Origin: Anaerotruncus sp.
GTDB lineage: Bacteria; Bacillota; Clostridia; Oscillospirales; Acutalibacteraceae
Direction of reading: 5' to 3'
NCBI GenBank assembly: GCA_022009795.1
Contig: CP091724.1
Span: 1,925,494 to 1,989,493, forward strand
DNA length: 64,000 bases
The notes beneath the pieces were generated by a model. It searched no databases, was not told the origin of the DNA, and saw nothing but the letters and a program-made list of their open reading frames with translations. Shown here piece by piece: positions 3,179 through 61,081 of this stretch (positions within the stretch are counted from its first letter, which is position 1; every line of letters begins with the position of its first letter). The translations under genes were made by a program, and so were the position numbers.

Positions 3179-3853
3179 TTATTTTTGCCACTCGTGAACT
3201 TCGTTAAGCAGCCAGTTTGCCCATTCGTCTATGCCCTCGCCCGTTTTTGCGCAGATGAGGAAAACCTTTGCGTTCGGATTTCTTTTCTTAATATATTCCC
3301 TGCATTTTTCAACGTCAAAATCAAAATATGGAAGCACATCGATTTTGTTTATCAGCACAACATCGCAAATTGAAAACATAAGCGGGTATTTAAGCGGCTT
3401 GTCGTCGCCCTCGGGCACGGAAAGAATCATTGCGTTTTTAACTGCTCCCGTGTCAAATTCCGCCGGGCACACAAGATTGCCCACATTTTCAAGAATTGCA
3501 AGCTCAACATCGTCTGTGTTAAGCCCTTCAAGGCCCTGCCTTGTCATTTCCGCATCAAGGTGGCACATTCCGCCGGTGTGAAGCTGAATTGATTTAACTC
3601 CCGTTTCGGCAATCTTTTTAGCGTCCACATCGCTGTCTATATCGGCCTCCATAACGCCGATTTTAACCTTATCTTTAAGCGCGCCTATTGTGGCTTTTAA
3701 GGTGGTGGTTTTGCCCGAGCCCGGAGAGGACATCAAATTCAGCAAAAAAACACCCCTCTTTCCTTTAAGCTTTTGCGAAGCGCAGCGGCTTCGTCATCGT
3801 TGTTTTTTTAAATACGCTTTGCTTAATTTCAAGAATTTTTTTACTTCATCCAT
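3179..3853 (-). CDS. hypB: Nickel incorporation GTPase HypB
   Basis: SSPGSGKT, GGMCHLDA, ENVGNLVCPA, DKPLKYP, NKID; N-terminus frameshifted. Confidence 0.95.
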
Positions 3854-7885: not shown

Positions 7886-8014
7886 GTGGCGCACTAAGTA
7901 AAAAAATTAAGCCGTATTTTTTTACGAGGCTGTGACAAAGGGCAGAAAAAAATTTGCCGCCGGCGGCCACTGCTTCAGCAGGCGCGGCGCTGAAACGAAA
8001 ATATATAAAAGCAT

Positions 8015-8203: not shown

Positions 8204-10666
8204 TTAATCCGCGGCTTGTTCGCTTTTCAGCTTGCCTGCGGGGATTTTAACCGTGGCTTTAAACAAATCGCCGTCTATCACTATTTCAAGGCTTCCGCCG
8301 TGCAGACGGCAAAGGTCCGAAGCAATTGAAAGCCCAAGGCCGTGACCGTCCGTCTTTCTGGATTTATCGCCGCGCACAAAGCGCTCGGTTAATTCGGCGG
8401 CGGAAATGTTAAGCGCTTCCTTTGAAATGTTTTTAATTTCAAAGCAGCCGAAATCGTTTTCGGTGTAAACGCGGGTGTAAACGCGCGAGCCGGGCGCGGA
8501 ATATTTTCTTGCGTTTGAAAGCAGATTTTCAAGCACGCGGTAAAGCTTTGCGCCGTCTGCCGAAACAATGTTTTTGCGCGCGGGCTCTTCAAACACCAAT
8601 TGCAAATTCGCTTTTTCAAAGCCCGTGGTTTCCTCCACGATTGCCTGTGTTGCAAGCTCGTTTAAATCCAGCAGGGTTTTATTCAGCACAATGTTGCCGG
8701 AGGAAACTTTTGACGCTTCTATCAAATCCTCAATCAGCTTTTTAAGCCTGTTTGCCTTATCGGCAATAACCGCCATGTATTTTTTTGCGCGGCTTCATCC
8801 TTGATATCGCATTTTTTTGCAGCAAATCAATATAGTTGATAACGGAGGTGAGCGGCGTTTTTTTAAATCGTGGGAAACATTTGTGATAAGCTCGGTTTTG
8901 GTGCGTTCGTCCTTAACCGCCTTGATAACGGCACTCTGCAGTGCGCAGCTTTGCTTATCAAGAGAATCGGCGAGGATTTTAAGACTTTGCGGCAGGCTTT
9001 GCAAATCCACTTCAACCGGTGCGCCGGCCGTGGCGCAGGCAATGATTTTATCAAGCTCGCCCATGTATTTTGAAGCCTTGTATGCGCCGTAAATATCCGC
9101 TGCCAAAAGGCATGCCGTTAAAATCAGCGCAAGGAATATAAAAATTCCTCTGTTGAGCGCAAATAAAACCGCAATCAGCGCAATGCCGAAAAGGTTTAAA
9201 ACAACAAAGCCCGTTATTAAAAGAATTGTGTTTTTTTTCATTTCCTGCGGCTTATATGCAAATGCGGAAATCACCTTTATGTTTCGTTTTGTGATGCGCT
9301 TTATAAAATTGCCGAATTTGTAAATCAGCGTGCTTTTCCATATATTTATGCCGCTTTTTGCCATGCGAGCATATGATGTGAAAAGCTCAAGCAGTGGCAA
9401 ATAAATCACAATGCCCGCCAAATATAAAAATCCGTAGTTCGATGATATAAGCCTGAAAATCTTATAAAGATTGTTTACAGAACCGTAAAAAACACCCGAG
9501 CCGACGGATATTATCAGCCAAAAAGCAAGCGCTTCAATCGCCGCTGCAAAGGCAAAATGCAGGTCGGCGGGAATTTTATCCGTAAATGCGGTTTCGGCTT
9601 CGGCCTTGGTCTTGCTCGGCGATTTGCGACCCGCAAGCCTGATTGATATAACAAAGAATATTATGCAGGCAGCCGCGCTTGCGGCAAAGTAATAAACGCA
9701 ATAATCGCCGGTGTGGTTTGTTGCCGCTTCTATGGCGTTATTAAGCGTGCCGTATGTATCGTCGGCGGAAAAGGAGGTGTCTATCTGTGCATAAAGCTTA
9801 ACCTTTGAAAGAGTTTGATCGTAGCCGCTGTAGCCGTAGATTGAAAGCGATGAATCGGATGAAACATCCAAGATATCGGATTCTGCTTTGCCGTTTTCGA
9901 TAATATAATAATCATTAACGGCGCGGTTCTCCATATTGCTCAAAAAAGCCTGCGGATCCGCAATGTTTGAGGCAACGGAGCCGTCATCATAAACGGCATA
10001 ATATTGAATGTTTTTCAGCGCAAGCGAATCCGACTCGCCTGCTTCGTTTGTGTCGTTGCAATAATATCGGTAAAAAAATTGTTGCCGAATTTTTCTTGCG
10101 ATTTGAGATTTTGCATTGTCGTCCGTCAGCCCGCTGCTCAGCGAAACGGAAAGCTCGCTTTCGGGCAATTCGCGTATGGGCAATTGAAAAAACACTTTGC
10201 CGTCTTCAAATCCGTAATCCGAAACGCCGTATTGCAAAAGGCTGATCCGAAGCTGTTCGTCGCTCGGAGCGGTAATCTGCGTCATGCTTTCACCGCCGCC
10301 TGAATCGCTTTGCAATGTTGTTGTGGTCTCCGTGGTTGCGGTTTTCGCATAGGCGGTTAGGATTTTGTAAACCTCAAGCCCGCGCTGAGCGGCGGAAGCC
10401 TTTGCGGCATCATATGTTGCCTGATTTTCATTGTGGCTCACATCGTCTATTATCTTTTGAATATCGCTTGCGAAATTTTCTTTAAATATGGTTGAATCCA
10501 CGGTTCTTGTGTTGTCGCCCGCGAGCGCCTGCAAACCGAAAAGCTCAACCCTAACAAGCGCTCCGATTCCGTTGAAGCCGCATAAAGCCGCCATCAGGCA
10601 GCCTAATAATGCGCATAAAATTTTATTGAATTTGCTGAATTTAAATTTTGTCCACTTTGTATCCAA
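8204..10666 (-). CDS. Membrane sensor histidine kinase, frameshifted
   Basis: H-box ITNVSHDLK, N-box NLLSNARKY, G-box GHGLGLSIA; multiple TM helices. Confidence 0.9.
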
Positions 10667-22506: not shown

Positions 22507-22575
22507 TTTTTTGCCGCGCTGCGGCTTGTAAAATCAAAAAAATCAGGCAATAATTTAAGTTGTAAGGTGTTAACA

Positions 22576-23174
22576 ATGGCATATAATCTTGCGCCGCTTC
22601 AAAATTTAATAGAGCAGTTTGAGCGCATGCAGGGTATTGGGCATAAAACCGCCCAAAGAATGGCCTTTTATGTGCTCGATTTAAGCGATGAGGATGCCAA
22701 ACGCTTTGCACAGGCAATCACCGATGCCCACACAAAAATCAGGCAGTGCAAATATGCTGTGATTTGGCGGATGATGAGCTTTGCCCTATCTGCAAAAGCG
22801 AAACCCGCGATAAAAGCGTGATTTGCGTTGTGGAAGATCCCCGTGATGTTGCCGCAATTGAGCGCACCCATGAATATAACGGCACTTATCATGTGCTTCA
22901 CGGCGCAATTTCGCCGATGAATAATATCGGCCCCGATCAAATCAAAATCAAAGAGCTGCTTGCCCGCCTTAATGACGGCGTGGTTGAGGAGGTTATAATG
23001 GCAACCAACCCAACTGTTGAGGGCGAGGCAACGGCAATGTATATAGGCAGGCTGCTGAAGCCCATGGGTATCACCGTTTCAAGGCTTGCTTACGGCGTGC
23101 CTGTAGGCGCAGATCTTGAGTATGCGGATGAGGTTACATTGTCTCGCGCGCTGGAAGGCCGCAGCCTGATTTAA
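22576..23174 (+). CDS. recR: Recombination mediator RecR, frameshifted
   Basis: [10 protein letters not shown]4 zinc finger, [12 protein letters not shown]. Confidence 0.95.
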
Positions 23175-23740: not shown

Positions 23741-24092
23741 GGGGATGAAAGGATTTCGACGGGGTTGTTGAACCTTGGTCAGCGAGTAGCGGAGTTGCAC
23801 CGCTTTAAAAGTAACACTTTAAAATTAACTGACAATAACAGATCAGTAGCTCTTGCTGCTTAATTAGCGGCTTGCGTTCTGCCGGAGAGTGCCACGGCTC
23901 CGAACAGAGCGTCGATTTAGTGGCGAACATGAATGGAAGAGCGCCTTGGCTTCCGTCAGGTATAAAAGGCTACCGATGCCGATAGGCTGTTTGTTGCCGC
24001 TCGGTTTGGGGAATCCTAAATAATAAACTACACTCGTAGAGCCCTTGGCAAGATGATTTCGGACGCGGTTTCGATTACCGCCATCTCCACCA
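23741..24092 (+). ncRNA. ssrA: tmRNA; tag (A)DNNRSVALAA at 23831-23863
   Basis: 5' GGGGATG pairs with 3' CATCTCCACCA; T-arm GCGGT-TTCGATT-ACCGC; ALAA tag; adjacent to smpB. Confidence 0.95.
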
Positions 24093-24097
24093 CTTTT

Positions 24098-24133
24098 AGC
24101 CTTTTGAGCAGTAATGTTCAAAAGGCTTTATTT
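24098..24133 (+). terminator. Terminator after ssrA
   Basis: AGCCTTTTGAGC...GTTCAAAAGGCT hairpin. Confidence 0.7.
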
Positions 24134-24206
24134 ACGCCGAAAGCCGCATAAATAAGGGAATTTCACGATATGACGCACTTTCTTCAAAACTGACACAACC
24201 TCATAT

Positions 24207-24251
24207 AAATTACTCATAAAATTAATCATAAAGGGGTAGATTTTTGGGGTA
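24207..24251. repeat. Direct repeats resembling att arm-type sites
   Basis: AAATTACTCATA/AAATTAATCATA tandem (24207-24230); GGGGTA at 24233 and 24246. Confidence 0.45.
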
Positions 24252-24258
24252 CCGAAAA

Positions 24259-25174
24259 CTATATACTCATCTTATTTCTTGGATGGTTTTCTTTAAGAAT
24301 ATGGCGAATTTTGTTTGTGCTTATGTGAGTGTAAATTTGAGTAGTCGTAATTGAACTGTGACCGAGAAGCTGTTGAATATATCTTATGTTGACATTTTCA
24401 TCCATAAGTGCTGTTGCAAAAGTATGCCTGAACATATGCGGAGTAATATGTAAATCCACACCGCTCCTTTTTGCATAATCACTTATCATATTTCTTATGG
24501 ATTGCTCCGAATACCTGTTTCCTAATTTGTTGATGAAAACATAATCGCTATCGCAATCACAAATCTTAATATATTCATTTAAAAGTCTTGATACTTTAAC
24601 ATTAGCAATACACATTATGCGTTCTTTTGAACCTTTGCCGTAAATGTATATCGTGTTGCTGTTGAGGTCAAGACTTTTTCTTTTTAGATTGCTGATTTCC
24701 GATACCCTCATTCCGGTAGAAAACAGCAGTTCAATAATTATAACATTTCTTAGTGCCATTTTTATATTGATAACTGCTTTTTTTGCATTATCAAACTGTA
24801 AATATCCAAATTTCAATATACTTTTTTTATGTTCTCAATCGGAATAGTTTTTCGGCAGGGTAATCGGTTCTTTGTATTTTTAATGTAATTTTTGTGAAAC
24901 GGATTGATTTCAATAATGTCCTCAATTTCCATATACCTGTAAAATGCTTTCACGCAGGCAATTTTTCGCTTGGCAGTTTTAGGTTTGTAACGCTGATGAA
25001 GTGAGTTTATATATTTGTTTAGCTCATTCTTGCTAAAGCAATCCTTATCTTGCATATAAGAGCAAAACTGCTTTTAAATCAATTTTATACGCTTTTATCG
25101 TTAATGCACTCAGTCCTTTTTAAATTACTGCAAACCTCAATGTAATTCCTTGCTTCTTTTTCTATCTTTATCAT
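24259..25174 (-). CDS. XerC/D-like tyrosine recombinase (~305 aa), frameshifted; probable invertase
   Basis: TGMRVSE, GKGSKER, HMFRHTFAT, LGHSSITTTQIY; AGGAGG SD; no evident arm-binding domain. Confidence 0.9.
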
Positions 25175-25305
25175 AATAAAAACCTCCTAAAATATATGAT
25201 TTTTATTATGCTTGCTTATAAAAACCAAAAGTCGATAAAATTTGATTAAATATCTCAAAGTTATGCTATTCTTGACCATAAAATACACCAGTTTTGTATT
25301 TGTTA

Positions 25306-25371
25306 TTGAAAAAAATATTGAAATGTGCTATCTTTTAAATGAAATAAATGTAGTTTGAAAGGAATGCAGGA
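25306..25371 (+). promoter_or_regulatory. Fixed promoter and SD outside the left inversion site
   Basis: TTGAAA (25306), 17 nt, TG-c-TATCTT (25329-25334); GAAAGGA...AGGA 25357-25371. Confidence 0.65.
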
Positions 25372-25387
25372 TAACTATTGATTATCC
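25369..25387 (+). repeat. Left recombination site GGATAA-CTATTGA-TTATCC
   Basis: 6-bp inverted arms with a 7-bp asymmetric spacer; 18/19 identical to the reverse complement of 27160-27178. Confidence 0.85.
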
Positions 25388-26425
25388 TTTTTATATCAAT
25401 TTATATCAATGGAAAAATTAGATTATACTTTTTCAATAAAAAAAGTAAAAACGACAGATACAGATTATATAGAAGCAATAAAAATATATAACGAAAAAAA
25501 TACCATATGAAATTCGAACTCCTTCAAATGAAATAACAATGTGGATAAATGAAAGCCAAAAAAAATCACCATTTGCTTTATTTTTGCTTTTATTCTATAT
25601 TTTTTAATAATGAAGTTGTAGGATTTTTCAATGGAAACATATATAAAAAAAGAACCAAAAATAATGTTAGGAGAATACATTTCATTAAAAAAACAGGATT
25701 TGATTTTTGAAATAACAGTATTTACTTTTTTTAGATTTAATGAGAAACTACTATAAATCAAATAATGTAGATATATCTTATTTTTATAGATGAAATAAAT
25801 TATAGAAATTCAGGTAAATCGATTGACAAAGAAAGTCGAAAAATTTAAAAAAATCGTTATGTGTTCAAGGCTATGGGGAAATTGATTCAATTCATACAAT
25901 ATTGCCTTTGGGACTAAATAATTTTTGAAAGTTCTTTTGATGCCAAAATATATATAAAAATCTAATGATAAAATTTCTGAAATCTCAAAAGATACATACC
26001 TTCAAATAATTGAGTCAATATATTATGATTATTATGTAGCCTGGTATAAAAATCCTTTTTTTCTGAATCTGATCTTAATAAATACCAATTAAAAAGTAGA
26101 TACGTTATTTCAAGATTTAACAAACAAATTAATGAAAAACATCTAAATTCAAAGTTCTTTATACAGATTGCCCAATATTAAATGATAGAAAAAAATGCAA
26201 TACGATACAATTAGTGTTCCAACAAAAAAACATAAAAGTGGTTATGTATGGATAATTATTGTTCTATTAGTAATAATCGTTCCACCAATGGCCGGATATA
26301 TATACAATTGGTTGTTGAATATAATGGAAATAGAAATATCAAGCGTAGAAGCAATAATTGGAGAAAGTATCAGTGGAATATTAACTTTTATTTCAACTTA
26401 TATTGTTTATAAAAAAATATTATAA
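25378..26425 (+). CDS. AT-rich hypothetical protein, GNAT-like N-terminal region and two C-terminal hydrophobic segments, frameshifted
   Basis: Manual translation ...AIKIYNEK..PYEIRTPSNEI...VVGFSMETY...; ORF 26195-26425 tail; start TTG 25378 (needs one indel) or ATG 25409; GNAT call is pattern-based. Confidence 0.65.
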
Positions 26426-27169
26426 TTTTTTTAGTGTCATAATAATATTTCCAGAATGCTTTTTCATATAATTACTTTTTATTGAAATAATCGTCAAATT
26501 TATTTAGTTTCTCAGCAATATTTTTCATGATTAGCAAACAGAGCATCTAATATGTGGAATCCTTTTCACATCAACAACTTTAATACACTTAAAGCTCTCA
26601 ACAACTTTTCATTATATATTCATAAGAGTAGATCCATTGTCTTTGAAATTGATCTAAATACGGTGTTGTAATAATAGCCGCATCAGATTTATAATACTTA
26701 TTAAATAAATATTCAAAACTATTACTATTTTTCGAATTCTAAAATAATAATTCCTTCCGATTTTTGTCACTCGAATTAACTCTGAAATTGAAATAATAGC
26801 ATCTGTATAGTTAATAACGCTGCCTACACATAAAAACACCATCAAAAAAATACAATCATCAAATGGGATTTTTTTCAATTGAACCAACAGTATATTCTTT
26901 ACAGTTTTTCTATTTTTAATTTTTTGCTATGTCAATGTGATGCATTCTACATTTTTAAACCATAAGCATTGCCCGCCGATCCTGCATTTAAAAATATAAT
27001 TTGATTTGACTATTTCGCTATTATTAATGTAATTATCTATGTAGTTATAAGAGTGTTTATACCATGAAGAACTAGACCAAACAGATTCTGCTTTTTTTCA
27101 TAAAAAAATTTTTTTAACTATGTTTAAATCAAGCTTTTTTTCATAAGTGAAATTATAGTGGATAATCAA
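26420..27169 (-). CDS. Class I SAM-dependent methyltransferase, frameshifted
   Basis: Manual translation from TTG 27169: MIIHYNFTYEKKLDLNIVK...LNAGSAGNAY...IPFDDCIF...CVGSVINY...ELIRVTK...LEFE. Confidence 0.8.
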
Positions 27170-27178
27170 TAGTTATCT
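27160..27178 (-). repeat. Right recombination site AGATAA-CTATTGA-TTATCC (inverted)
   Basis: Plus strand GGATAATCAATAGTTATCT. Confidence 0.85.
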
Positions 27179-27211
27179 TTTTATTAACAACCAAACATCT
27201 GTATATAATTA

Positions 27212-27244
27212 AAAGCCTGTCGGTTAAAATCGGCAGGCTTTTTT
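27212..27244 (+). terminator. Terminator-like hairpin upstream of parA
   Basis: AAAGCCTGTCG...CGGCAGGCTTT then T run. Confidence 0.6.
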
Positions 27245-27267
27245 GTATATATAGAACTAAAACGGAG

Positions 27268-28104
27268 GTGTTTTTAACGAAACAAACAAAAGTAATTGCA
27301 ATATGCAATCAAAAAGGCGGTGTAGGTAAAACTACAACCGCCTTAAATTTTGGAGTCGGTCTTGCAAATGAGGGCAAGAAAGTCTTGCTTATCGACTGTG
27401 ACCCACAAGGTGATTTGACAACAGCTTTGGGTTGGAGAGATACAGACGAACTTTCGGTTACTCTTGCAGACAAACTCGTCGAGTATATTGAAGAAAGGAA
27501 CAAGAACCCAGCAAACGGTATTCTCCACCATAAAGAAAATATTGATTTGCTCCCGGCAAACCTTGATTTGTCGGCACTTGAACTTAGTTTGGTCAACACA
27601 ATGAGCCGTGAAACCGTGCTGAAAGGTTATGTAAATTCAATAAAAGCTGCGTATGATTATGTAGTTATTGATTGTATGCCGTCTTTGAGCGTGCTTACGG
27701 TTAATGCATTGGTTGCTGCCGATTCGGTTATCATTCCTGTGCAGTCGCAATTCCTTGCAGCTAAAGGTATGACACAACTTGTTAAAACTATAAGTAAAGT
27801 TAAAAGACAAATTAACCCGTCACTTAAAATTGACGGTGTTTTGCTTACACTTGTAGATGGCAGAACTAACCTTTCCAAAAGTACAAAGGAAGCTATCGTA
27901 AATGACTACGGCAAATATCTTAAAATTTTTGATACGCAGATACCTATGGGTATTAAAGCGGCTGAAACTGCAATAAGTGGCAAATCAATATTCGCTTATG
28001 ATAAAAACAGTAAGGTCGCAAAAGCGTATGTAGACTTTACGAAGGAGGTATTGAAACTTGAGCGAAAAGAGAAAAACAGACTTCAGTCTGAACAGGCTCG
28101 ATGA
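27268..28104 (+). CDS. parA: ParA/Soj family ATPase
   Basis: NQKGGVGKTTT, DCDPQG, IDCMPSL. Confidence 0.95.
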   Translation: MFLTKQTKVIAICNQKGGVGKTTTALNFGVGLANEGKKVLLIDCDPQGDLTTALGWRDTDELSVTLADKLVEYIEERNKNPANGILHHKENIDLLPANLDLSALELSLVNTMSRETVLKGYVNSIKAAYDYVVIDCMPSLSVLTVNALVAADSVIIPVQSQFLAAKGMTQLVKTISKVKRQINPSLKIDGVLLTLVDGRTNLSKSTKEAIVNDYGKYLKIFDTQIPMGIKAAETAISGKSIFAYDKNSKVAKAYVDFTKEVLKLERKEKNRLQSEQAR

Positions 28105-28996
28105 TTTATTCACATCACAAAGCGAACGAGAAAACGGACTTACTCCGACTATAAAAGATATCCCTCTTGAAAAACTTGTACCGTTTCCGAATCATCCATT
28201 TAAAGTGCGTGACGATGAAGAAATGAATAAACTTGTTGAAAGCGTTTCTGAAAACGGAGTGTTGGTTCCTGCTATTGTTCGTGAGAAAGATAACGGTGAT
28301 TATGAAATCATCTCAGGACACAGACGAAAATTTGCAAGTGAGATTGCCGGTAAAAACACATTGCGTTGTATCGTTTCAAATTTGGATGATGACGCCGCAA
28401 CCGTCATTATGGTTGACAGCAATATCCAAAGAGAAAACATTTTGCCGAGTGAAAAGGCATTTGCATACAAAATGAAATTGGATGCGATGAATAGACAAGG
28501 TAAAAGAAACGATTTAACTTTATGCCAAGTTGGCACAAAGTTAAATTCTGCTCAAATAATTGCAGAAAACACAGGCGAAAGTACAAGGCAAGTCTTTAGA
28601 TATATTCGCCTTACCTATCTTATCCCCGAACTGCTGCAAATGCTTGACGAGGGTAAAATGAAAATGTTACCGGCTGTCGAAATATCATTTCTTGATAAAG
28701 AATGTCAGCAAGATTTGTTGGAAGCAATAGAAAGCGAATGTTGTACTCCGTCTCATGCACAGGCTATTCGTATGCACAAGATGTTTAATGACGGAGAACT
28801 AAACAGCGATACTATTCTTGAGGTTATGTGTGAATTGAAACCAAACCAACAGGAAAGGCTCATAATTCCACATAAGACGCTTGAAAAGTATATCCCAAAA
28901 TCTGTTGCACCTGAGAAAAGACAAGATTATGTATGCAAGGCTTTGGAGCATTACAACAAGTTTCTGAAAAGCAGAGCCGAAAGGGACAGCAGATAG
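28058..28996 (+). CDS. parB: ParB family partition protein
   Basis: HPFKV, YEIISGHRR, DSNIQRE. Confidence 0.93.
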   Translation: MSEKRKTDFSLNRLDDLFTSQSERENGLTPTIKDIPLEKLVPFPNHPFKVRDDEEMNKLVESVSENGVLVPAIVREKDNGDYEIISGHRRKFASEIAGKNTLRCIVSNLDDDAATVIMVDSNIQRENILPSEKAFAYKMKLDAMNRQGKRNDLTLCQVGTKLNSAQIIAENTGESTRQVFRYIRLTYLIPELLQMLDEGKMKMLPAVEISFLDKECQQDLLEAIESECCTPSHAQAIRMHKMFNDGELNSDTILEVMCELKPNQQERLIIPHKTLEKYIPKSVAPEKRQDYVCKALEHYNKFLKSRAERDSR

Positions 28997-49452: not shown

Positions 49453-51250
49453 CAAAAAAGCAGAAATTATCGCTTTTGTAGTTTTTGTTGTACCTTTGAT
49501 ATATATTGGGCTGAAAATTGCACCGTATATGTCAAACGGTTTAATATCAATTCTTAATAGCTTTGGCGAAATATTTGCACAACCGTTTAAGATAACCTTA
49601 TGTGAGGACAGTTTAAAAACTGTCCTCATTTTGCTTTTAATCTACGGTATTACTTTGTTGGTGTATTTTTCTTCAAAGAAAAATTACAGGCGTGGCGAAG
49701 AACACGGCTCTGCAAAGTGGGGCAAAGCAAAACAGGTTGGTAAAAAGTATATTCAAAAGCCGATAAATCAAAACAAGATATTGACTGATAATGTCGCTAT
49801 TGGTATGAACTGCAAAAAGCACAGGCGAAATCTTAATACGATAATCTGTGGCGGTGCCGTTGCAGGCAAAACAAGATTTTACGCAAAGCCGAATTTAATG
49901 CAGTGCAACACCTCTTTTGTTATTCCTGATCCAAAAGGTGAAATAGTTAAGGCTGACGGTAATCTGCTTGTAAAAGAAAGGTTATGATGTCAAGGTTAAT
50001 GATTTGATTGATATGGAAAAGAGCTATTGCTACAATCCGTTTGTTTATCTTGAAAATGACAATGACATACAAAAAGCTTGTAACTAATCTTTTTCAAAAG
50101 CACAACACCGAAAGGCTCGCAGACTAATGACCCGTTTTGGGATACGGCGACACAAATGCTTTTACTTGCTTTAATCTTTTATCTTCACTATGAAGCACCC
50201 GAAGAAGAACAGAATTTTGCAATGGTAATGTATATGCTTCGTGCAGGTGCTATTGAAGATGACGAGGACGGCCCATGCCTTACACCACTTGACCGACTGT
50301 TTTACAATCTTGAAACCGAGAAACCCGAACATATAGCAGTTAAGTATTACAAGTCTTATCATTCAGGCTCGTCAAAAACGCTTAAATCAATTCAGATAAC
50401 CTTGATGTCAAGACTTGAAAAGTTCAATCTTGAAAGCCTTGCAGCTTTAACCAAGACAGATGAACTTGATTTATCAACTATGGGAGAAAAGAAAACAGCC
50501 TTGTTTGCCGTTATTCCCGACAATGATACAAGTTTTAATTTTCTTATCTCGATTTTATATACTCAACTGTTTCAACAACTCTTTTATTGTGCTGACAAAA
50601 AGCATGGAGGAGCGTTACCGATACCCGTACACTTTCTCATGGACGAGTTTGCGAATGTATCATTACCCGATGATTTTGATAAGCTACTCAGCGTAATGCG
50701 TTCAAGAAACATTTTCGTATCCATAATACTTCAAAATCTTTCTCAGCTTAAAGCCTTGTTTGAAAAGCAATGGGAAAGTATTGTCGGCAACTGCGACCAA
50801 TTTCTTTATCTCGGTGGAAATGAGCAATCAACACACAAATATGTTTCCGAGCAACTCGGCAAGGAAACTATCGACACAAACACATACGCACGAAGTTTTG
50901 GCAGAAACGGTAACTATTCTACCAACTACCAAATATCAGGCAGAGAGTTAATGACGCCTGCCGAAGTGCGTATGCTTGATAATCGCTATGCAATTCTCTT
51001 TATCCGTGGTGAAAGACCTGTTATTGACCTCAAGTATGATATTCTTAAACATCCGAATTTGAAGTATACAGAAGACGGCAGAGCCAAGCCTTTTTATTTA
51101 CGGTGAAGAAAAAAATCTTCTATTGCCTCAATTACTTTTTACTTTTTATTAAAAGTGATAAAAAAAGCAGGAAAAAAAGATGATATTGCAGACGATTATG
51201 ATTTTGACTTAATTACAAAAGAAGAACTTGAACTGATGTTCAATATTTAG
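49439..51250 (+). CDS. virD4: Type IV coupling protein VirD4/TraG, frameshifted
   Basis: EHGSAKWG, GGAVAGKT, DPKGE, MDEFAN, ILQNLSQL. Confidence 0.93.
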
Positions 51251-51261
51251 GAGGAAAACTT

Positions 51262-51619
51262 ATGTTTAAATTCAAAACAAAAAAGAGTGATGAAGTCAAA
51301 ACTTCACCACTCACTAATAAATCAAATGCTGTTGCAAAGGCAACTATGTTTTTTTGCAACGCTTATTGCAACAATGTTCTGTTTTGCTGTTACTGCTTTT
51401 GCAGACGATGATCCACTTACGGTTGTAAACAATCTTTCAACCTTTATTTTCGGTCTTATCCGAGCAGTTGGACTTATCATTCTTGCTTGGGGCATTGTTC
51501 AGGTAGGCTTGTCGTTTCAAACGCATGATCCGTCACAGCGCTCTAACGGATTTCTCACCCTTGCCGGTGGAGTAGTTATTACCTTTGCAAAGAAAATTCT
51601 GGATGTAATTATTGGGTGA
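51262..51619 (+). CDS. VirB2/TrbC-like small conjugation membrane protein
   Basis: AGGAGG SD; HDPSQRSNG motif; TM helices; position after virD4. Confidence 0.7.
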
Positions 51620-51627
51620 AAAATTTA

Positions 51628-51654
51628 GTCGTATCTTTTTCGATACGACTTTTA
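51628..51654. terminator. Terminator at the cargo boundary
   Basis: AGTCGTATC...GATACGACT hairpin. Confidence 0.6.
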
Positions 51655-51748
51655 CATATTAGTTAAAAATCAGAAATAGACTTTTGCTTTATAGTATAAT
51701 AATATCTATATTCTTACACTATATTAAACATTAAAACATTGAAAAAAA

Positions 51749-52463
51749 TTAATATTTTTTTATTAAAAAAACTAAATGATACTCAAGTCCTTTTTTTAGT
51801 CTTTTTCTCATTCTCGGATTTTTGCCATTTCTGTTCAACAATTTTAAAATCATTAAAAATATTTTTTTAGCAAAATCTATAGAATGTGCTCCATTACCAT
51901 TAGGCAACATTAATAAATTGTCAATTAAATTATAATATGTCTCTCTAGTTTCTTTAATTGTTTTTCGCAAGTTCTCCTTTAAATACATACTCGCCTTGTT
52001 GTAAAATATTTAGGTCATGAAAAAAATACGATTGCATAATATCATGTAATTCTCTGTCTCTGTCCCCTTTCATAGCACGTTGCAATAAGTCAGGACATGT
52101 TGGGTTACTGCATGTTTGTGAATAGGTAAGTCGTTGACTAACCCATATACTAAATATCATTTTGTTTTCATACATTAAAAACTCAAATAAATCCTCCCAC
52201 TCCTCATCATCTGAATTAATTTCATAGTTCATGTCTCTAATACTAAAATAAAAAAATCTGAAATGAAATTTATAAGTCTAAAAAAACTTTTTAATCTTTT
52301 TTTCAAACATTGCCGTCTTATTTTGTTTCCTTGTTGTATAAATAGTTGCCCATATTGCTACAGTAGCTAACAATATTGAAGTTATTGTTGTAACATATTC
52401 AAAATAATCGTTGAAGTTACTATTTGTATTCAATGTAATTCTATAAACAATAAAGTTTTCCAT
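51749..52463 (-). CDS. AT-rich hypothetical cargo protein with N-terminal TM, frameshifted
   Basis: Joins ORFs 52278-52463, 51954-52232 and 51749-51988. Confidence 0.6.
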
Positions 52464-52479
52464 AATTCATCCATCCTAT

Positions 52480-53612
52480 TTTTAAATAATAAATATCATG
52501 TGCCTATAAAAAAATCCTATTATTAATGTCCATGAGCAATTCTTTTTGTAATGTTCGAGTTGCTGTGATATATGTACTTAAAGCGTAAAAAAACATGCAT
52601 TTGTTTATCATTCAATATCTACCAATTACATATGAAAAAAACTTACCTTTACATATATAACTCATATGGTTCACAAACCCGTATTTTATGTTCTTTAAGC
52701 AAAAATTGTATAATTAATTTATTGTTTAATTCCAAACAAATAAATTCACTTTCGTTAAAAGTTAGTAATTTAACAACTAAGTTATAGTTATTAATGTTAA
52801 AAATGTTTCAGTAGTTCAATAATATTAAAAAAATGCTTTTTTTATAAAAAAATTGTTGATAAATATTAACTTTATTTCGCCAATTATTATGTGTGTTTAT
52901 AACATCATACGACATTCTGTTAGACATATAGCCTCCTCCCATTGAAATATATTTTTTTCCTGGATTTGTTTCTACAAAAGAAGTTATTCCGGCTTTTTCT
53001 AAACTTAGCAACTGATTCATCACTAATGGGCTCTGCAAAGCGAAACGATTCCTTCAATTTGATATTTACTTAATAATTCTGGCCAATTATTCTCAATTAT
53101 TCTAACTAATTCTATTTTGGAAAACAAATATGGCTCAATGTTTTTATTGTGATTGTAAATTTGTAGCAAATATGCTGAGTTATTAGTGATGTATGCGAAT
53201 AGTAAATAATCACTTCTGTCAACAAATGTTTTTTTATTGTTAAGCCTATTTAAATGAAAATGATATATATTCCAATCATATATCAACATATCTTTTGAAT
53301 CTTTCTTTTCGATCTTTCTACTCATATACGGTGTAAGGGAAAATCCACGCATTAATTTGAGCACTATTTCGTTGAATGCTTGTTCACGTTCTTTTGGACA
53401 ATTTAATTCTTTTGAGATATAAACTTTTCTTGGAATAGTACTAATATTCCTTTTCAGTATATTTAAATATGAATATACATTGTCGCCGGATTTATTTGGA
53501 CTATATCCCATATTTTTTTAAACCATCGCACGCAATTGTATTTAAATCCTCAGCGAAATTAATTTCTATTGAATAATTTATTTTTTTCAGGTATTTGAGA
53601 ATTAATAATCAT
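52480..53612 (-). CDS. AT-rich hypothetical cargo protein (DWNIYHFHL...RSDYLLF), frameshifted; 3' end uncertain
   Basis: Joins ORFs 53023-53511 and 52808-53038 plus flanks. Confidence 0.6.
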
Positions 53613-59887: not shown

Positions 59888-60093
59888 GGAACATTAAGTT
59901 CCTTATTCTTTTATACATACTCAGATAGTATTCTATTAACTTGTTCATACCATTCGTTACTTTTTTTATTCCATATTCACAATACATTTGTGCATCATTT
60001 AGTGCTTCTGTTAATTGGCTTTTATTATAAATAGATGTGTTATCACAAATAAAATCAATCATACTTGTAGAGTATTTAAAAAGAATATCCCAT
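59880..60093 (-). CDS. Small AT-rich hypothetical protein
   Basis: AGGAGG SD before ATG ~60093; ORF 59832-60062; end uncertain. Confidence 0.4.
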
Positions 60094-60219
60094 TTTTAAA
60101 TTCCTCCTAATTGTATTTGATGGATTCTTATAATTTAAATATTATGGATAATATTTATTCAGTATTTTTAGAATTGGAAATATTCATATTTGGAAAGATT
60201 AATCTTGTTATTAAAGATT

Positions 60220-60639
60220 GATTTTTCAATTTTTTTAATACAGCATTTTTCATTTTTTTGTTATAATTGCTTGAAATGAAAGCGTTTGCATTGCTATCTA
60301 AATAAATTACACCATAATCTATTGCGTTTTTCATTATAGTAGATTTTTTTATGAAAGCTGCTATTGTACTTAGCTTTTTCAGAGGAAGTATTATTAGTAT
60401 TATTAGCTTCTTCTAATAATGCTGCTAATTCATCATCAATTTTTGATTTCTGTTTCATTTCCTCCAATTGTAACAGTTATTTTATTGATTTTATCTATAT
60501 CAAAATTTTTCTTTAATTTGTGTTCTCTTTTCGGTTACTTGATATGGATTTGTTGGCTCTTTATTTTTTTGGATATTGTACAAGATGAAAAAGCAACAAG
60601 TAAACATATAATCAATAAAATTGATATTATTTTTTTCAT
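60220..60639 (-). CDS. Putative lipoprotein, frameshifted (end approximate)
   Basis: MKKIISILLIICLLVAFSSC lipobox; GAGG SD. Confidence 0.6.
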
Positions 60640-60649
60640 TTGTTTTCCT

Positions 60650-61081
60650 CTAATACCATTTATTTACCCAACCTTTATCATCTGTGAATGATTGGGTAGT
60701 GGATTTTGTATTTGATGTGCTTTGAGCTTTTTTTGTAGTTGTTTCATTGTCTTTTTAAAGTGGTTTCTAATATTTCTGTGTTATTATTATTTTTTTAGAA
60801 ATTTCTGATTCGAATGAAGTTATATTATCTGATTCACTTTTAGAAGAATGGTTTTGAATATTGGAAAATGATACTTTTTGAGTAACAGATTCTGTAATAT
60901 TCGAATGCTTTTTTGTTGTGTTACCCTTATCACTTGTTGATGGCTCTTGATTTTTTGTGTATATGCCACCGTATTTATTTGTAACAGCAGCAGAATTATT
61001 ACTACTGCTGTTATTTGTGCAAGCAATAAAAGAGAAAAGCACAACTAAAATTGAAATCATAATTAGTATGCACTTCTTCAT
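60650..61081 (-). CDS. Ser/Thr/Asn-rich lipoprotein ending FTDDKGWVNKWY, frameshifted
   Basis: MKKCILIMISILVVLFSFIAC lipobox; manual joining across indels. Confidence 0.65.

Follow-up and report, generated by a model that had tools for sequence, protein, structure and literature searches.

A stretch of 64,000 nucleotides from the genome of Anaerotruncus sp. (contig CP091724.1; the whole stretch is called the window here) contains two convergent genes between inverted copies of a short site, next to a gene for a tyrosine recombinase. This arrangement is probably a site-specific DNA-inversion module at the edge of an integrated mobile element, in which the orientation of the cassette would choose the gene that is expressed. 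In the mechanism that we propose, the dedicated recombinase would recognize two 25-bp sites, each made of 9-bp near-palindromic arms, (A)AAGGATAA and TTATCC(TTT), around a 7-bp spacer, CTATTGA, that would give the site its direction. With the sites in inverted orientation, recombination would flip a cassette of 1.77 kb carrying two unrelated, convergent, apparently promoterless genes, each predicted to start about 23-25 nt inside its own site. A conserved promoter between the recombinase gene and the proximal site would read across that site into the adjoining gene, and a terminator hairpin would close the far side. A population would then hold two states, “acetyltransferase on” and “methyltransferase on”. 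The identical sites would also mark a replaceable slot, with relatives and metagenome contigs carrying other cassettes, or none, between identical flanks. We regard the module as conserved and real, and the either/or switch that an initial annotation of this DNA had put forward as largely right.

Recombination sites and probable inversion

The sequence GATAACTATTGATTATC is found at 25370-25386 on the plus strand and at 27161-27177 on the minus strand as an exact inverted pair of 17 nt, which widens to 18 of 19 nt (GGATAACTATTGATTATCC, 25369-25387 against 27178-27160) and to 35 nt at 77% identity. Each copy is a near-palindrome around the CTATTGA spacer. The initial annotation had described this pair as bracketing two genes, and its coordinates and the 18/19 match were borne out, the inner 17 nt being exact; so was, from the coordinates of the open reading frames (ORFs), the convergence of the genes, whose stop codons overlap in TTATAA at 26420-26425 (plus-strand ORF 26189..26425, minus-strand ORF 26420..26503). 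With up to three mismatches allowed, the site matches three times in the window, against 0.31 expected, and three or more matches were reached in 0 of 100 shuffles. GATAA-N7-TTATC occurs as four motifs in the whole 2.04-Mb genome, and their sole inverted pair is the one in the window.

One contig from a public metagenome run carries the flipped form of the window cassette. This contig (run X5, record 26, 970 nt) follows the window from 24611 to 25369 on the plus strand and then from 27177 to 26915 on the minus strand, with two differing letters; in other words, the left flank and the promoter are joined to the methyltransferase end. The two parts, on opposite strands, share 18 letters at the joint 25369/27177, and these letters are the site itself. 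A false join should be unlikely, because the repeat is shorter than the 31-letter word that presumably governed the contigs. It should be mentioned that the sequencing runs were compared as assembled contigs, at no more than 0.17 of the sampled words per run, and that uncovered parts of the cassette are uninformative.

Both orientations exist across samples and relatives. The intact recombinases of four relatives (alignment A1) were scanned against one genome per species, which gave 281 candidate stretches, 228 of them encoding a relative; the best 80 loci were kept. The gene next to the recombinase is the GNAT-like gene in the window, the methyltransferase gene in locus L034 and the GNAT gene in locus L099. 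When 38 cassettes were oriented from the recombinase side and compared by tblastx, homologous cassettes aligned either wholly in the same sense (for example L060-L098, L055d-L088 and L076-L081) or wholly in the opposite sense (L035-L071, L075-L088, L055d-L075, L072-L085, L046-L055u, L094-L095 and L054-L068), and a mixed-sense alignment was seen for L056-L063 only. An all-against-all comparison of the relatives' upstream regions at the DNA level gave no minus-strand matches, and these flips are visible at the protein level only. Of the 80 contigs, 12 break off no more than 5 nt from a site's inner edge, and six of these (L032, L043, L049, L046, L061 and L078) break off precisely there, as is expected where an assembly graph branches once the shared sequence ends.

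The motif (G)ATAA-N7-TTAT(C) stands beside the recombinase gene in 69 of the 80 loci: in 37 it occurs up to 300 nt upstream and in 37 up to 200 nt downstream, and five loci show both. Its density is 2.14 per kb near the gene against 0.084 per kb in the remaining locus sequence, in which the partner sites are included. An exact inverted partner (15-nt core including the spacer) lies 0.3-9 kb away in 33 of the 80 loci, and 36 loci have a site without a partner, although in 25 of these fewer than 600 nt are available in that direction. Pairs occur in 34 loci, with 39 inverted exact pairs and no direct ones; L034 was counted three times through overlapping motifs, so that the 39 pairs represent 37 distinct cassettes.

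The arms are constant across the family, with the consensus AAAGGATAA-N7-TTATCCTTT. The spacer varies by locus (CTATTGA, CTATTTA, CTCTGAA, CTAATAA, CTACAAA, TTCTCAA, TAACAAA and more) and is always identical within a pair. Strand exchange by tyrosine recombinases requires identical crossover regions, and spacers that agree within pairs and differ between loci fit this homology requirement, not transposon ends. In L050, L052 and L055, a single recombinase gene (9001-9900) has two cassettes, one upstream and one downstream, with differing spacers (CTATTTG and TATTTAA in L052), and the same architecture is present on a Streptococcus salivarius megaplasmid (L100, strain ICDC2, sites at 3350 and 6892) and on a plasmid of Aliarcobacter cryaerophilus ATCC 43158 (L101, sites at 7947 and 11767). 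Among the relatives, the recombinase lies on either side of the cassette, and site pairs occur on plasmids too.

The claim that inverted sites with palindromic arms flip the cassette is thus backed by the co-variation of the spacers, the flipped contig, the two orientations in relatives and the contig breaks at sites. An invertible cassette with an inward gene at each end is strongly supported by these comparisons of sequences.

Some loci show further variations of the sites. A fixed orientation of the spacer relative to the recombinase gene was considered and dropped, as upstream-type loci show both GATAAC... and GATAAT... forms. In L087 (9896-9960) and L097 (9406-9472), two sites with differing spacers stand in tandem about 50 nt apart just past the recombinase stop codon and may be nested or multi-segment (shufflon-like) versions. 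The inverted repeats of L075 (9897-10000), L081 (9996-10085) and L088 (9916-9991) are 76-104 nt long, with extra half-sites resembling GTTATC or TTATCC inside the cassette, which may be accessory binding sites for the recombinase. The spacer of L030 (CTTAATG) is the reverse complement of that of L042 (CATTAAG), as though the spacer alone had turned.

Table 1. Features of the module and its surroundings, in window coordinates
Feature	Position	Strand	Basis or sequence	Remark
XerC/D-like tyrosine recombinase, proposed cassette invertase	24259..25174	-	PF00589	
Promoter-like block TTGAAA-17-TGcTATCTT	25306..25334	+	pattern scan	reads toward left site
Proximal recombination site	25366..25390	+	GCAGGATAA - CTATTGA - TTATCCTTT	9-bp arms, 7-bp spacer
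GNAT-like acetyltransferase, C-terminal membrane segment	25410..26425	+	tblastn from L099, L034	frameshift-split
Class I S-adenosylmethionine (SAM) methyltransferase, small-molecule type	26420..27144	-	tblastn from L034, L099	frameshift-split
Distal recombination site, inverted copy	27157..27181	-	AAAAGATAA - CTATTGA - TTATCCACT	read on minus strand
G+C-rich hairpin, A-run/T-run flanks, two-way terminator shape	27211..27242	+	14 pairs, 6 GC, T tail	between distal site and parA
ParA-like and ParB-like genes	27268..28996	+	named from ORF translations (P-loop KGGVGKTT)	mobile-element backbone
tmRNA gene	23741..24092	+	ARAGORN	3' end is left junction of genomic island carrying the module

Recombinase, cassette genes and expression

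The recombinase gene is split in the assembly into at least three ORF pieces (24259-24816, 24813-25055 and an N-terminal piece reaching to the ATG at 25174, with GGAGG upstream). That a XerC/D-like recombinase is transcribed divergently next to the cassette agrees with the match of PF00589 (Phage_integrase) to window positions 24302-24754 (148.5 bits, E 1.9e-43, cut-off 27.1). An intact relative, the 301-aa protein of L014, scores 143.7 bits for the same family and 38.1 bits for an N-terminal SAM-like domain; the window recombinase is 70.8% identical to it (tblastn, in an alignment crossing frameshifts), and the DNA is 90% identical. The motifs MRVSE, GKGSKER, HMFRH, GHSS and IYTH are legible in the window translation. 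R153, K177/K180, H243, R246, H269 and Y278 are invariant in alignment A1, with the same motifs in the window ORF 24259-24816, and we take these residues to be the catalytic ones (R, K, H-x-x-R, H/W and Y).

XerC and XerD are the best family matches, with scores below the cut-offs of the NCBIfam equivalogs (236.5 against 335.15 and 230.3 against 329.6, respectively), and a separate Xer-like gene is present elsewhere in the genome (G000:771098-771562). The models for integron integrases (integrase_gron, 98.9 against 265; PRK15417, 67.7 against 435) and for FimB/E-type invertases (74.4 bits against 221) are likewise below cut-off, and the nearest solved relatives are XerA and XerD. These matches place the enzyme, as far as family models can tell, among the tyrosine recombinases of the Xer branch. 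No Resolvase (serine recombinase) domain was found beside the segment, the matches in the genome lying outside the window (G000:1694266-1694703 and 2006634-2007010). We infer that this recombinase is the catalyst and that the inversion takes place within a clone.

The identities of the two cassette genes come through homologs alone, since a Pfam search with 10 cassette fragments of the window gave no family at cut-off. A blastn search with 24100-27300 against plasmids returned six records, each covering no more than 6% of the query, and one weak match pointed to the Aliarcobacter faecis plasmid pAFAEC (L099). This plasmid encodes a recombinase with 44% identity to the L014 relative (E 2e-84), and behind it an 18/18 inverted repeat, AATAATAGGATATTATAT (1277 and 2957), encloses a 320-aa GNAT-family protein and a 241-aa methyltransferase in convergent, overlapping genes. 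The equivalent pair in L034 consists of a 337-aa GNAT-like protein, 28% identical to its Aliarcobacter counterpart, and a 240-aa Methyltransf_11 protein, 41% identical to the Aliarcobacter methyltransferase.

By tblastn, the GNAT-like proteins of L099 and L034 align to window positions 25497-26392 in two frames, and the methyltransferases of both loci (MT241 and MT240) align to 27133-26601. In relatives, the GNAT-like protein is the product of one gene of about 320-337 aa and the methyltransferase has about 240 aa; the 76-aa membrane ORF at 26195-26425 represents the C-terminal end of this GNAT-like protein. The L099 protein matches PF00583, and its look-alikes in the Atlas are N-acetyltransferases. 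The methyltransferase homologs match Methyltransf_11 in Pfam and a UbiE-like family in NCBIfam, which suggests an enzyme of the small-molecule (UbiE-like) kind and not a DNA methylase.

The initial annotation had also placed the start codons of both genes inside the recombination sites, and this proposal did not stand. TTG triplets are present in both spacers (25378-25380 and 27169-27167), the one at 27169 being in frame only in the assembly as it stands. Alignments with homologs put the starts near the ATG at 25410 for the GNAT-like gene and near the ATG at 27144 for the methyltransferase gene, 23-25 nt inside the sites; the latter requires one base in the T7 run at 27135-27141. The spacers vary freely among relatives and their TTGs are not conserved, so the spacer TTGs are probably not the start codons. 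The outer arm AAAGGA was also considered as a Shine-Dalgarno (SD) sequence for a start in the spacer and was rejected, because most spacers have no start codon and the starts lie further inward. The expectation that sites would be found near homologous recombinases with ORFs starting at the spacer TTG stands for the sites, but not for the ORF starts.

The positions of the genes relative to the sites bear on expression. At both ends of most cassettes (the exceptions are L019, L031, L054, L070 and L076), only 3-60 nt separate the start of an inward gene from the adjoining site, which leaves no room for a promoter. In many loci the repeat extends inward by 20-104 nt, covering a shared leader with an SD sequence in L072, L063 and L100, and an SD sequence, the ATG and three codons in L056. 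In most of 25 anchored sequences from upstream-type loci, a TTG...(17-18)...TGnTAT block precedes the site by about 30-60 nt, as judged by eye and with a loose regular expression. In downstream-type loci the site lies about 8 nt past the recombinase stop codon, so the cassette could be read only as part of the recombinase transcript or from a promoter inside that gene. No second recombinase gene was found beyond the far site, as none of 28 neighbours matches Phage_integrase. It is plausible that one fixed promoter serves whichever gene adjoins, and the start positions and shared leaders give good reason to think that orientation decides expression.

Probable cassette exchange, cargo and genomic setting

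Whole cassettes appear to be gained, lost or exchanged exactly at the sites. Record 11 of run X2 has about 2.5 kb of other sequence between window positions 25070 and 27182, and the same joint occurs in contigs of run X3. In L030, L042 and L040, a single site is followed by sequence that is found elsewhere beyond the far site; the occupied counterpart of L040 is L031, with a 2.3-kb cassette, and the single sites of L030 and L042, about 185 nt upstream of the recombinase, mark “empty” loci with no cassette. A given spacer may also flank unrelated cassettes: CTAATAA in L025, L046, L050 and L055, and TTCTCAA in L045 and L050. It is likely that entire cassettes are exchanged when both sites recombine.

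The cargo was surveyed with Pfam on 80 cassette proteins, together with smaller Pfam sets. On one side are ATP-grasp (Ddl-like) enzymes, GT2/GT1 glycosyltransferases, PLP aminotransferases, decarboxylases, SHMT, radical SAM enzymes, spermidine synthase with AdoMet decarboxylase, polyprenyl synthase, methyltransferases and GNAT proteins. The opposite side carries TIR, SIR2, SIR2-STALD, NACHT/STAND or AAA with TPR, Mrr_cat-STAND and pentapeptide-repeat proteins. PADLOC gave no convincing match for 10 cassette proteins of relatives (best E 4.8e-4). The neighbours outside the cassettes include genes for KwaB, Schlafen/AlbA_2, DUF3800, relaxases and coupling proteins, and cargo and neighbours together point to mobile elements and conflict systems. 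In L100 (8264-9498), which belongs to the S. salivarius megaplasmid, the recombinase gene is immediately followed by an annotated pezAT toxin-antitoxin pair.

In the window, the G+C content is about 0.45 before about 24.1 kb and falls to 0.24-0.35 directly after the end of the tmRNA gene at 24092. A 576-bp repeat of 24072-24645, with 91% identity, lies about 52.8 kb downstream in the genome, beyond the end of the window. This downstream repeat (within G000:C1:2001331-2002941, about 12.9 kb past the window end) takes in the 3' end of the tmRNA gene together with a second, truncated invertase gene, which suggests tandem or successive insertions at ssrA. Another tyrosine integrase gene (G000:2001331-2001840) lies just before it at the right end of the island. 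The module thus sits at the left edge of an integrated element equipped with its own integrase, and an integrase beside the att repeat would make the cassette-side recombinase dispensable for integration. In the relatives G019 and G022, the same recombinase (90% DNA identity) is found at the edge of a similar element adjoining tsf. The DNA of the ParA-like and ParB-like genes is covered by contigs in all four metagenome runs aligned. Two further patches of very low G+C content (0.25-0.30) lie within the island, at window positions 51000-53000 and 60000-61000.

Alternative explanations and related systems

Several observations weigh against an orientation switch. The flipped contig comes from a different sample, and its recombinase part differs from the window at 62 of 759 letters. 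Some cassettes have no inward gene at one end (L019, L031, L054 and L076). The gene that comes next beyond the far site is directed toward the cassette in 19 of 33 relatives, and there the far gene may not be silent. The hairpin past the distal site recurs in L014; a terminator outside the far site was nevertheless rejected as a general feature, being found in 2 of 35 flanks against 5 of 600 control windows by a crude hairpin rule that missed the imperfect L014 hairpin. Promoter-like matches in 24900-27400 occur at the level of chance (21 against 19.9 expected from shuffles). Of the earlier statement that a promoter lies only outside the left site, the block at this position stands and is conserved in relatives, but its exclusivity is not demonstrable by pattern.

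The recombinase and both cassette genes are, moreover, frameshifted as assembled, and if these breaks are real the switch is dead here. They look like assembly indel errors, many of them in homopolymers. We read them in this way because recR (22567-23174) is likewise broken into two overlapping frames, because the completeness of the genome, a single 2.04-Mb contig, is 71.85%, and because the recombinase gene has more than 10 places at which Illumina-type contigs of relatives are 1-2 nt longer or shorter than the window. Many window ORFs also stop abruptly, and apparent “pseudogenes” in this assembly deserve no trust.

Among other explanations, we consider it unlikely, though worth keeping in mind, that the inverted sites function chiefly as a docking slot at which cassettes are exchanged (as in recombinase-mediated cassette exchange or the pdif proposals), with inversion as a side reaction and both genes self-expressed. 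The identical flanks around differing cassettes in X2 and X3, the empty single sites, the sharing of one spacer by unrelated cassettes and the outside genes that point toward the far end all speak for it. It leaves unexplained why genes start 3-60 nt inside both sites and why an identical leader, SD sequence or ATG stands at both ends, and a single integration would yield direct repeats, of which none was seen against 39 inverted pairs. A docking slot is compatible with, rather than exclusive of, the inversion switch. That the recombinase is instead the integrase of the island or a resolvase, the 19-bp repeats being att- or dif-like leftovers and the cassette ordinary cargo that does not flip, seems very improbable to us. 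The gene does lie at the extreme edge of the island beside the tmRNA gene (and beside tsf in G019 and G022), and its best family matches are XerC and XerD, but those scores fall short of the cut-offs, another tyrosine integrase adjoins the att repeat at the far end of the island, the sites are always inverted pairs around a cassette, plasmids included, with the recombinase on either side, and a flipped form exists.

We can give hardly any credence to the repeats being the terminal inverted repeats of a small transposable element or a product of chance in AT-rich DNA. As many as 144 inverted repeat pairs of a short, imperfect type are listed in 4.5 kb of this DNA; the shuffles, however, never reached the observed number of site matches, the arms are constant and the central 7 nt vary jointly in both copies across the 37 cassettes, no transposase family appears among the Pfam matches of the cassette proteins, and the empty loci have single sites at the same place. 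The shuffles, the co-variation of the spacers and the enrichment of the motif beside recombinases led us to reject this explanation.

The inversion switch has relatives among known systems. The G segment of phage Mu and the C segment of phage P1 (inverted by Gin and Cin), as well as the Pin and Min systems, have short inverted repeats, two convergent alternative gene sets and a fixed outside promoter. The likeness to our module lies in an invertible segment with convergent alternatives, of which the facing set is expressed from a fixed promoter, as would also be the case here. Gin/Cin-type systems use serine invertases with an enhancer and Fis, and their repeat lies inside the coding sequence, so that homologous tail-fibre genes have a constant N-terminus and variable ends; here, in contrast, we find a tyrosine recombinase, complete and unrelated alternative genes and widely varying cargo. 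In the Mycoplasma vsa, vpma and vsp loci, a Xer-like recombinase encoded beside the locus (HvsR/Xer1) inverts DNA at sites in the 5' untranslated region and brings a silent gene to a single promoter. Those loci comprise many sites and families of related genes for surface lipoproteins, whereas the present modules, found on mobile elements of Clostridia, Streptococcus and Aliarcobacter, have two sites and one cassette whose enzyme or effector genes are unrelated. The initial annotation had set this switch apart from known systems, and this was overstated, since the Mu G segment and the vsa/vpma loci already switch genes behind a fixed promoter.

Other comparisons are looser. Invertible promoters (fimS with FimB/FimE, those of Bacteroides, and Clostridioides difficile RecV) and the hsdS “epigenetic invertons” share with our module a tyrosine recombinase, inverted repeats and ON/OFF heterogeneity, but they flip a promoter or shuffle gene halves, whereas here the promoter would stay and whole genes would flip. 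Upstream-type loci, the window included, resemble integrons in that the recombinase gene diverges from a promoter reading through the primary site into promoterless, exchangeable cargo. They differ in having one cassette between inverted double-stranded core sites and an integron-integrase score below cut-off, and integron-type direct arrays were not seen among the exact site pairs of the 34 loci (0 direct against 39 inverted; no search for attC folding was made). The pdif modules of Acinetobacter plasmids, with 11-6-11 XerC/XerD sites served by host Xer proteins, likewise place exchangeable gene modules between inverted Xer-type sites; here the sites are of a 9-7-9 form with near-identical arms, and a dedicated recombinase is encoded alongside. 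XerC/XerD dimer resolution acts at a single dif, whereas inverted site pairs with a 7-bp spacer surround cargo on mobile elements and plasmids here. By analogy, the Mu G segment and the Mycoplasma vsa/vpma loci would be closest in mechanism, integrons in layout and pdif in exchangeable modules. What sets the present modules apart is the joint presence of complete, unrelated end genes, a dedicated Xer-like enzyme, spacer-coded site pairs and diverse cargo. No description of this cassette class was found in the full-text literature searched, a body of text that includes PMC5903667, PMC11892184 and PMC7159879 and has most subscription journals outside its scope.

Known inversion switches turn a promoter round, reshuffle the ends of genes or select one of several related surface or tail-fibre genes; here, the alternatives are complete and unrelated genes or gene sets at the two ends of a replaceable cassette. 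The device recurs with dozens of cargoes across phyla, with 228 recombinase relatives among species-representative genomes. We offer tentatively, as a possibility only, that the window is a member of a widespread, undescribed class of modular “flip cassettes”, spanning integrative and conjugative elements of gut Clostridia, S. salivarius megaplasmids and Aliarcobacter plasmids. In such a class, the site would be a universal socket and the spacer an address separating neighbouring cassettes; cassettes, typically with an immune-type effector or sensor (TIR, SIR2-SLOG, STAND/NACHT, Mrr-STAND or pentapeptide) at one end and small-molecule or surface-modifying enzymes (ATP-grasp, glycosyltransferases, PLP enzymes, radical SAM, polyamine synthesis, acetyl- and methyltransferases) at the other, would be inverted and also swapped between elements, and a clone would hedge between two exclusive states of defence or physiology. 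If the switch works in the way proposed here, it would be a general plug-in by which mobile elements achieve either/or expression of costly genes, and it would provide a compact natural set of orthogonal site pairs, with the same arms and different spacers, for genetic memory devices. Cultured carriers (A. cryaerophilus ATCC 43158, A. faecis CCUG 66484 and S. salivarius ICDC2, as well as the mouse isolate 1XD21-29 with L085) make the switch directly testable. Many of the cargo genes resemble abortive-infection effectors, which, if the switch works, would explain why recombinases are so often found in defence islands.

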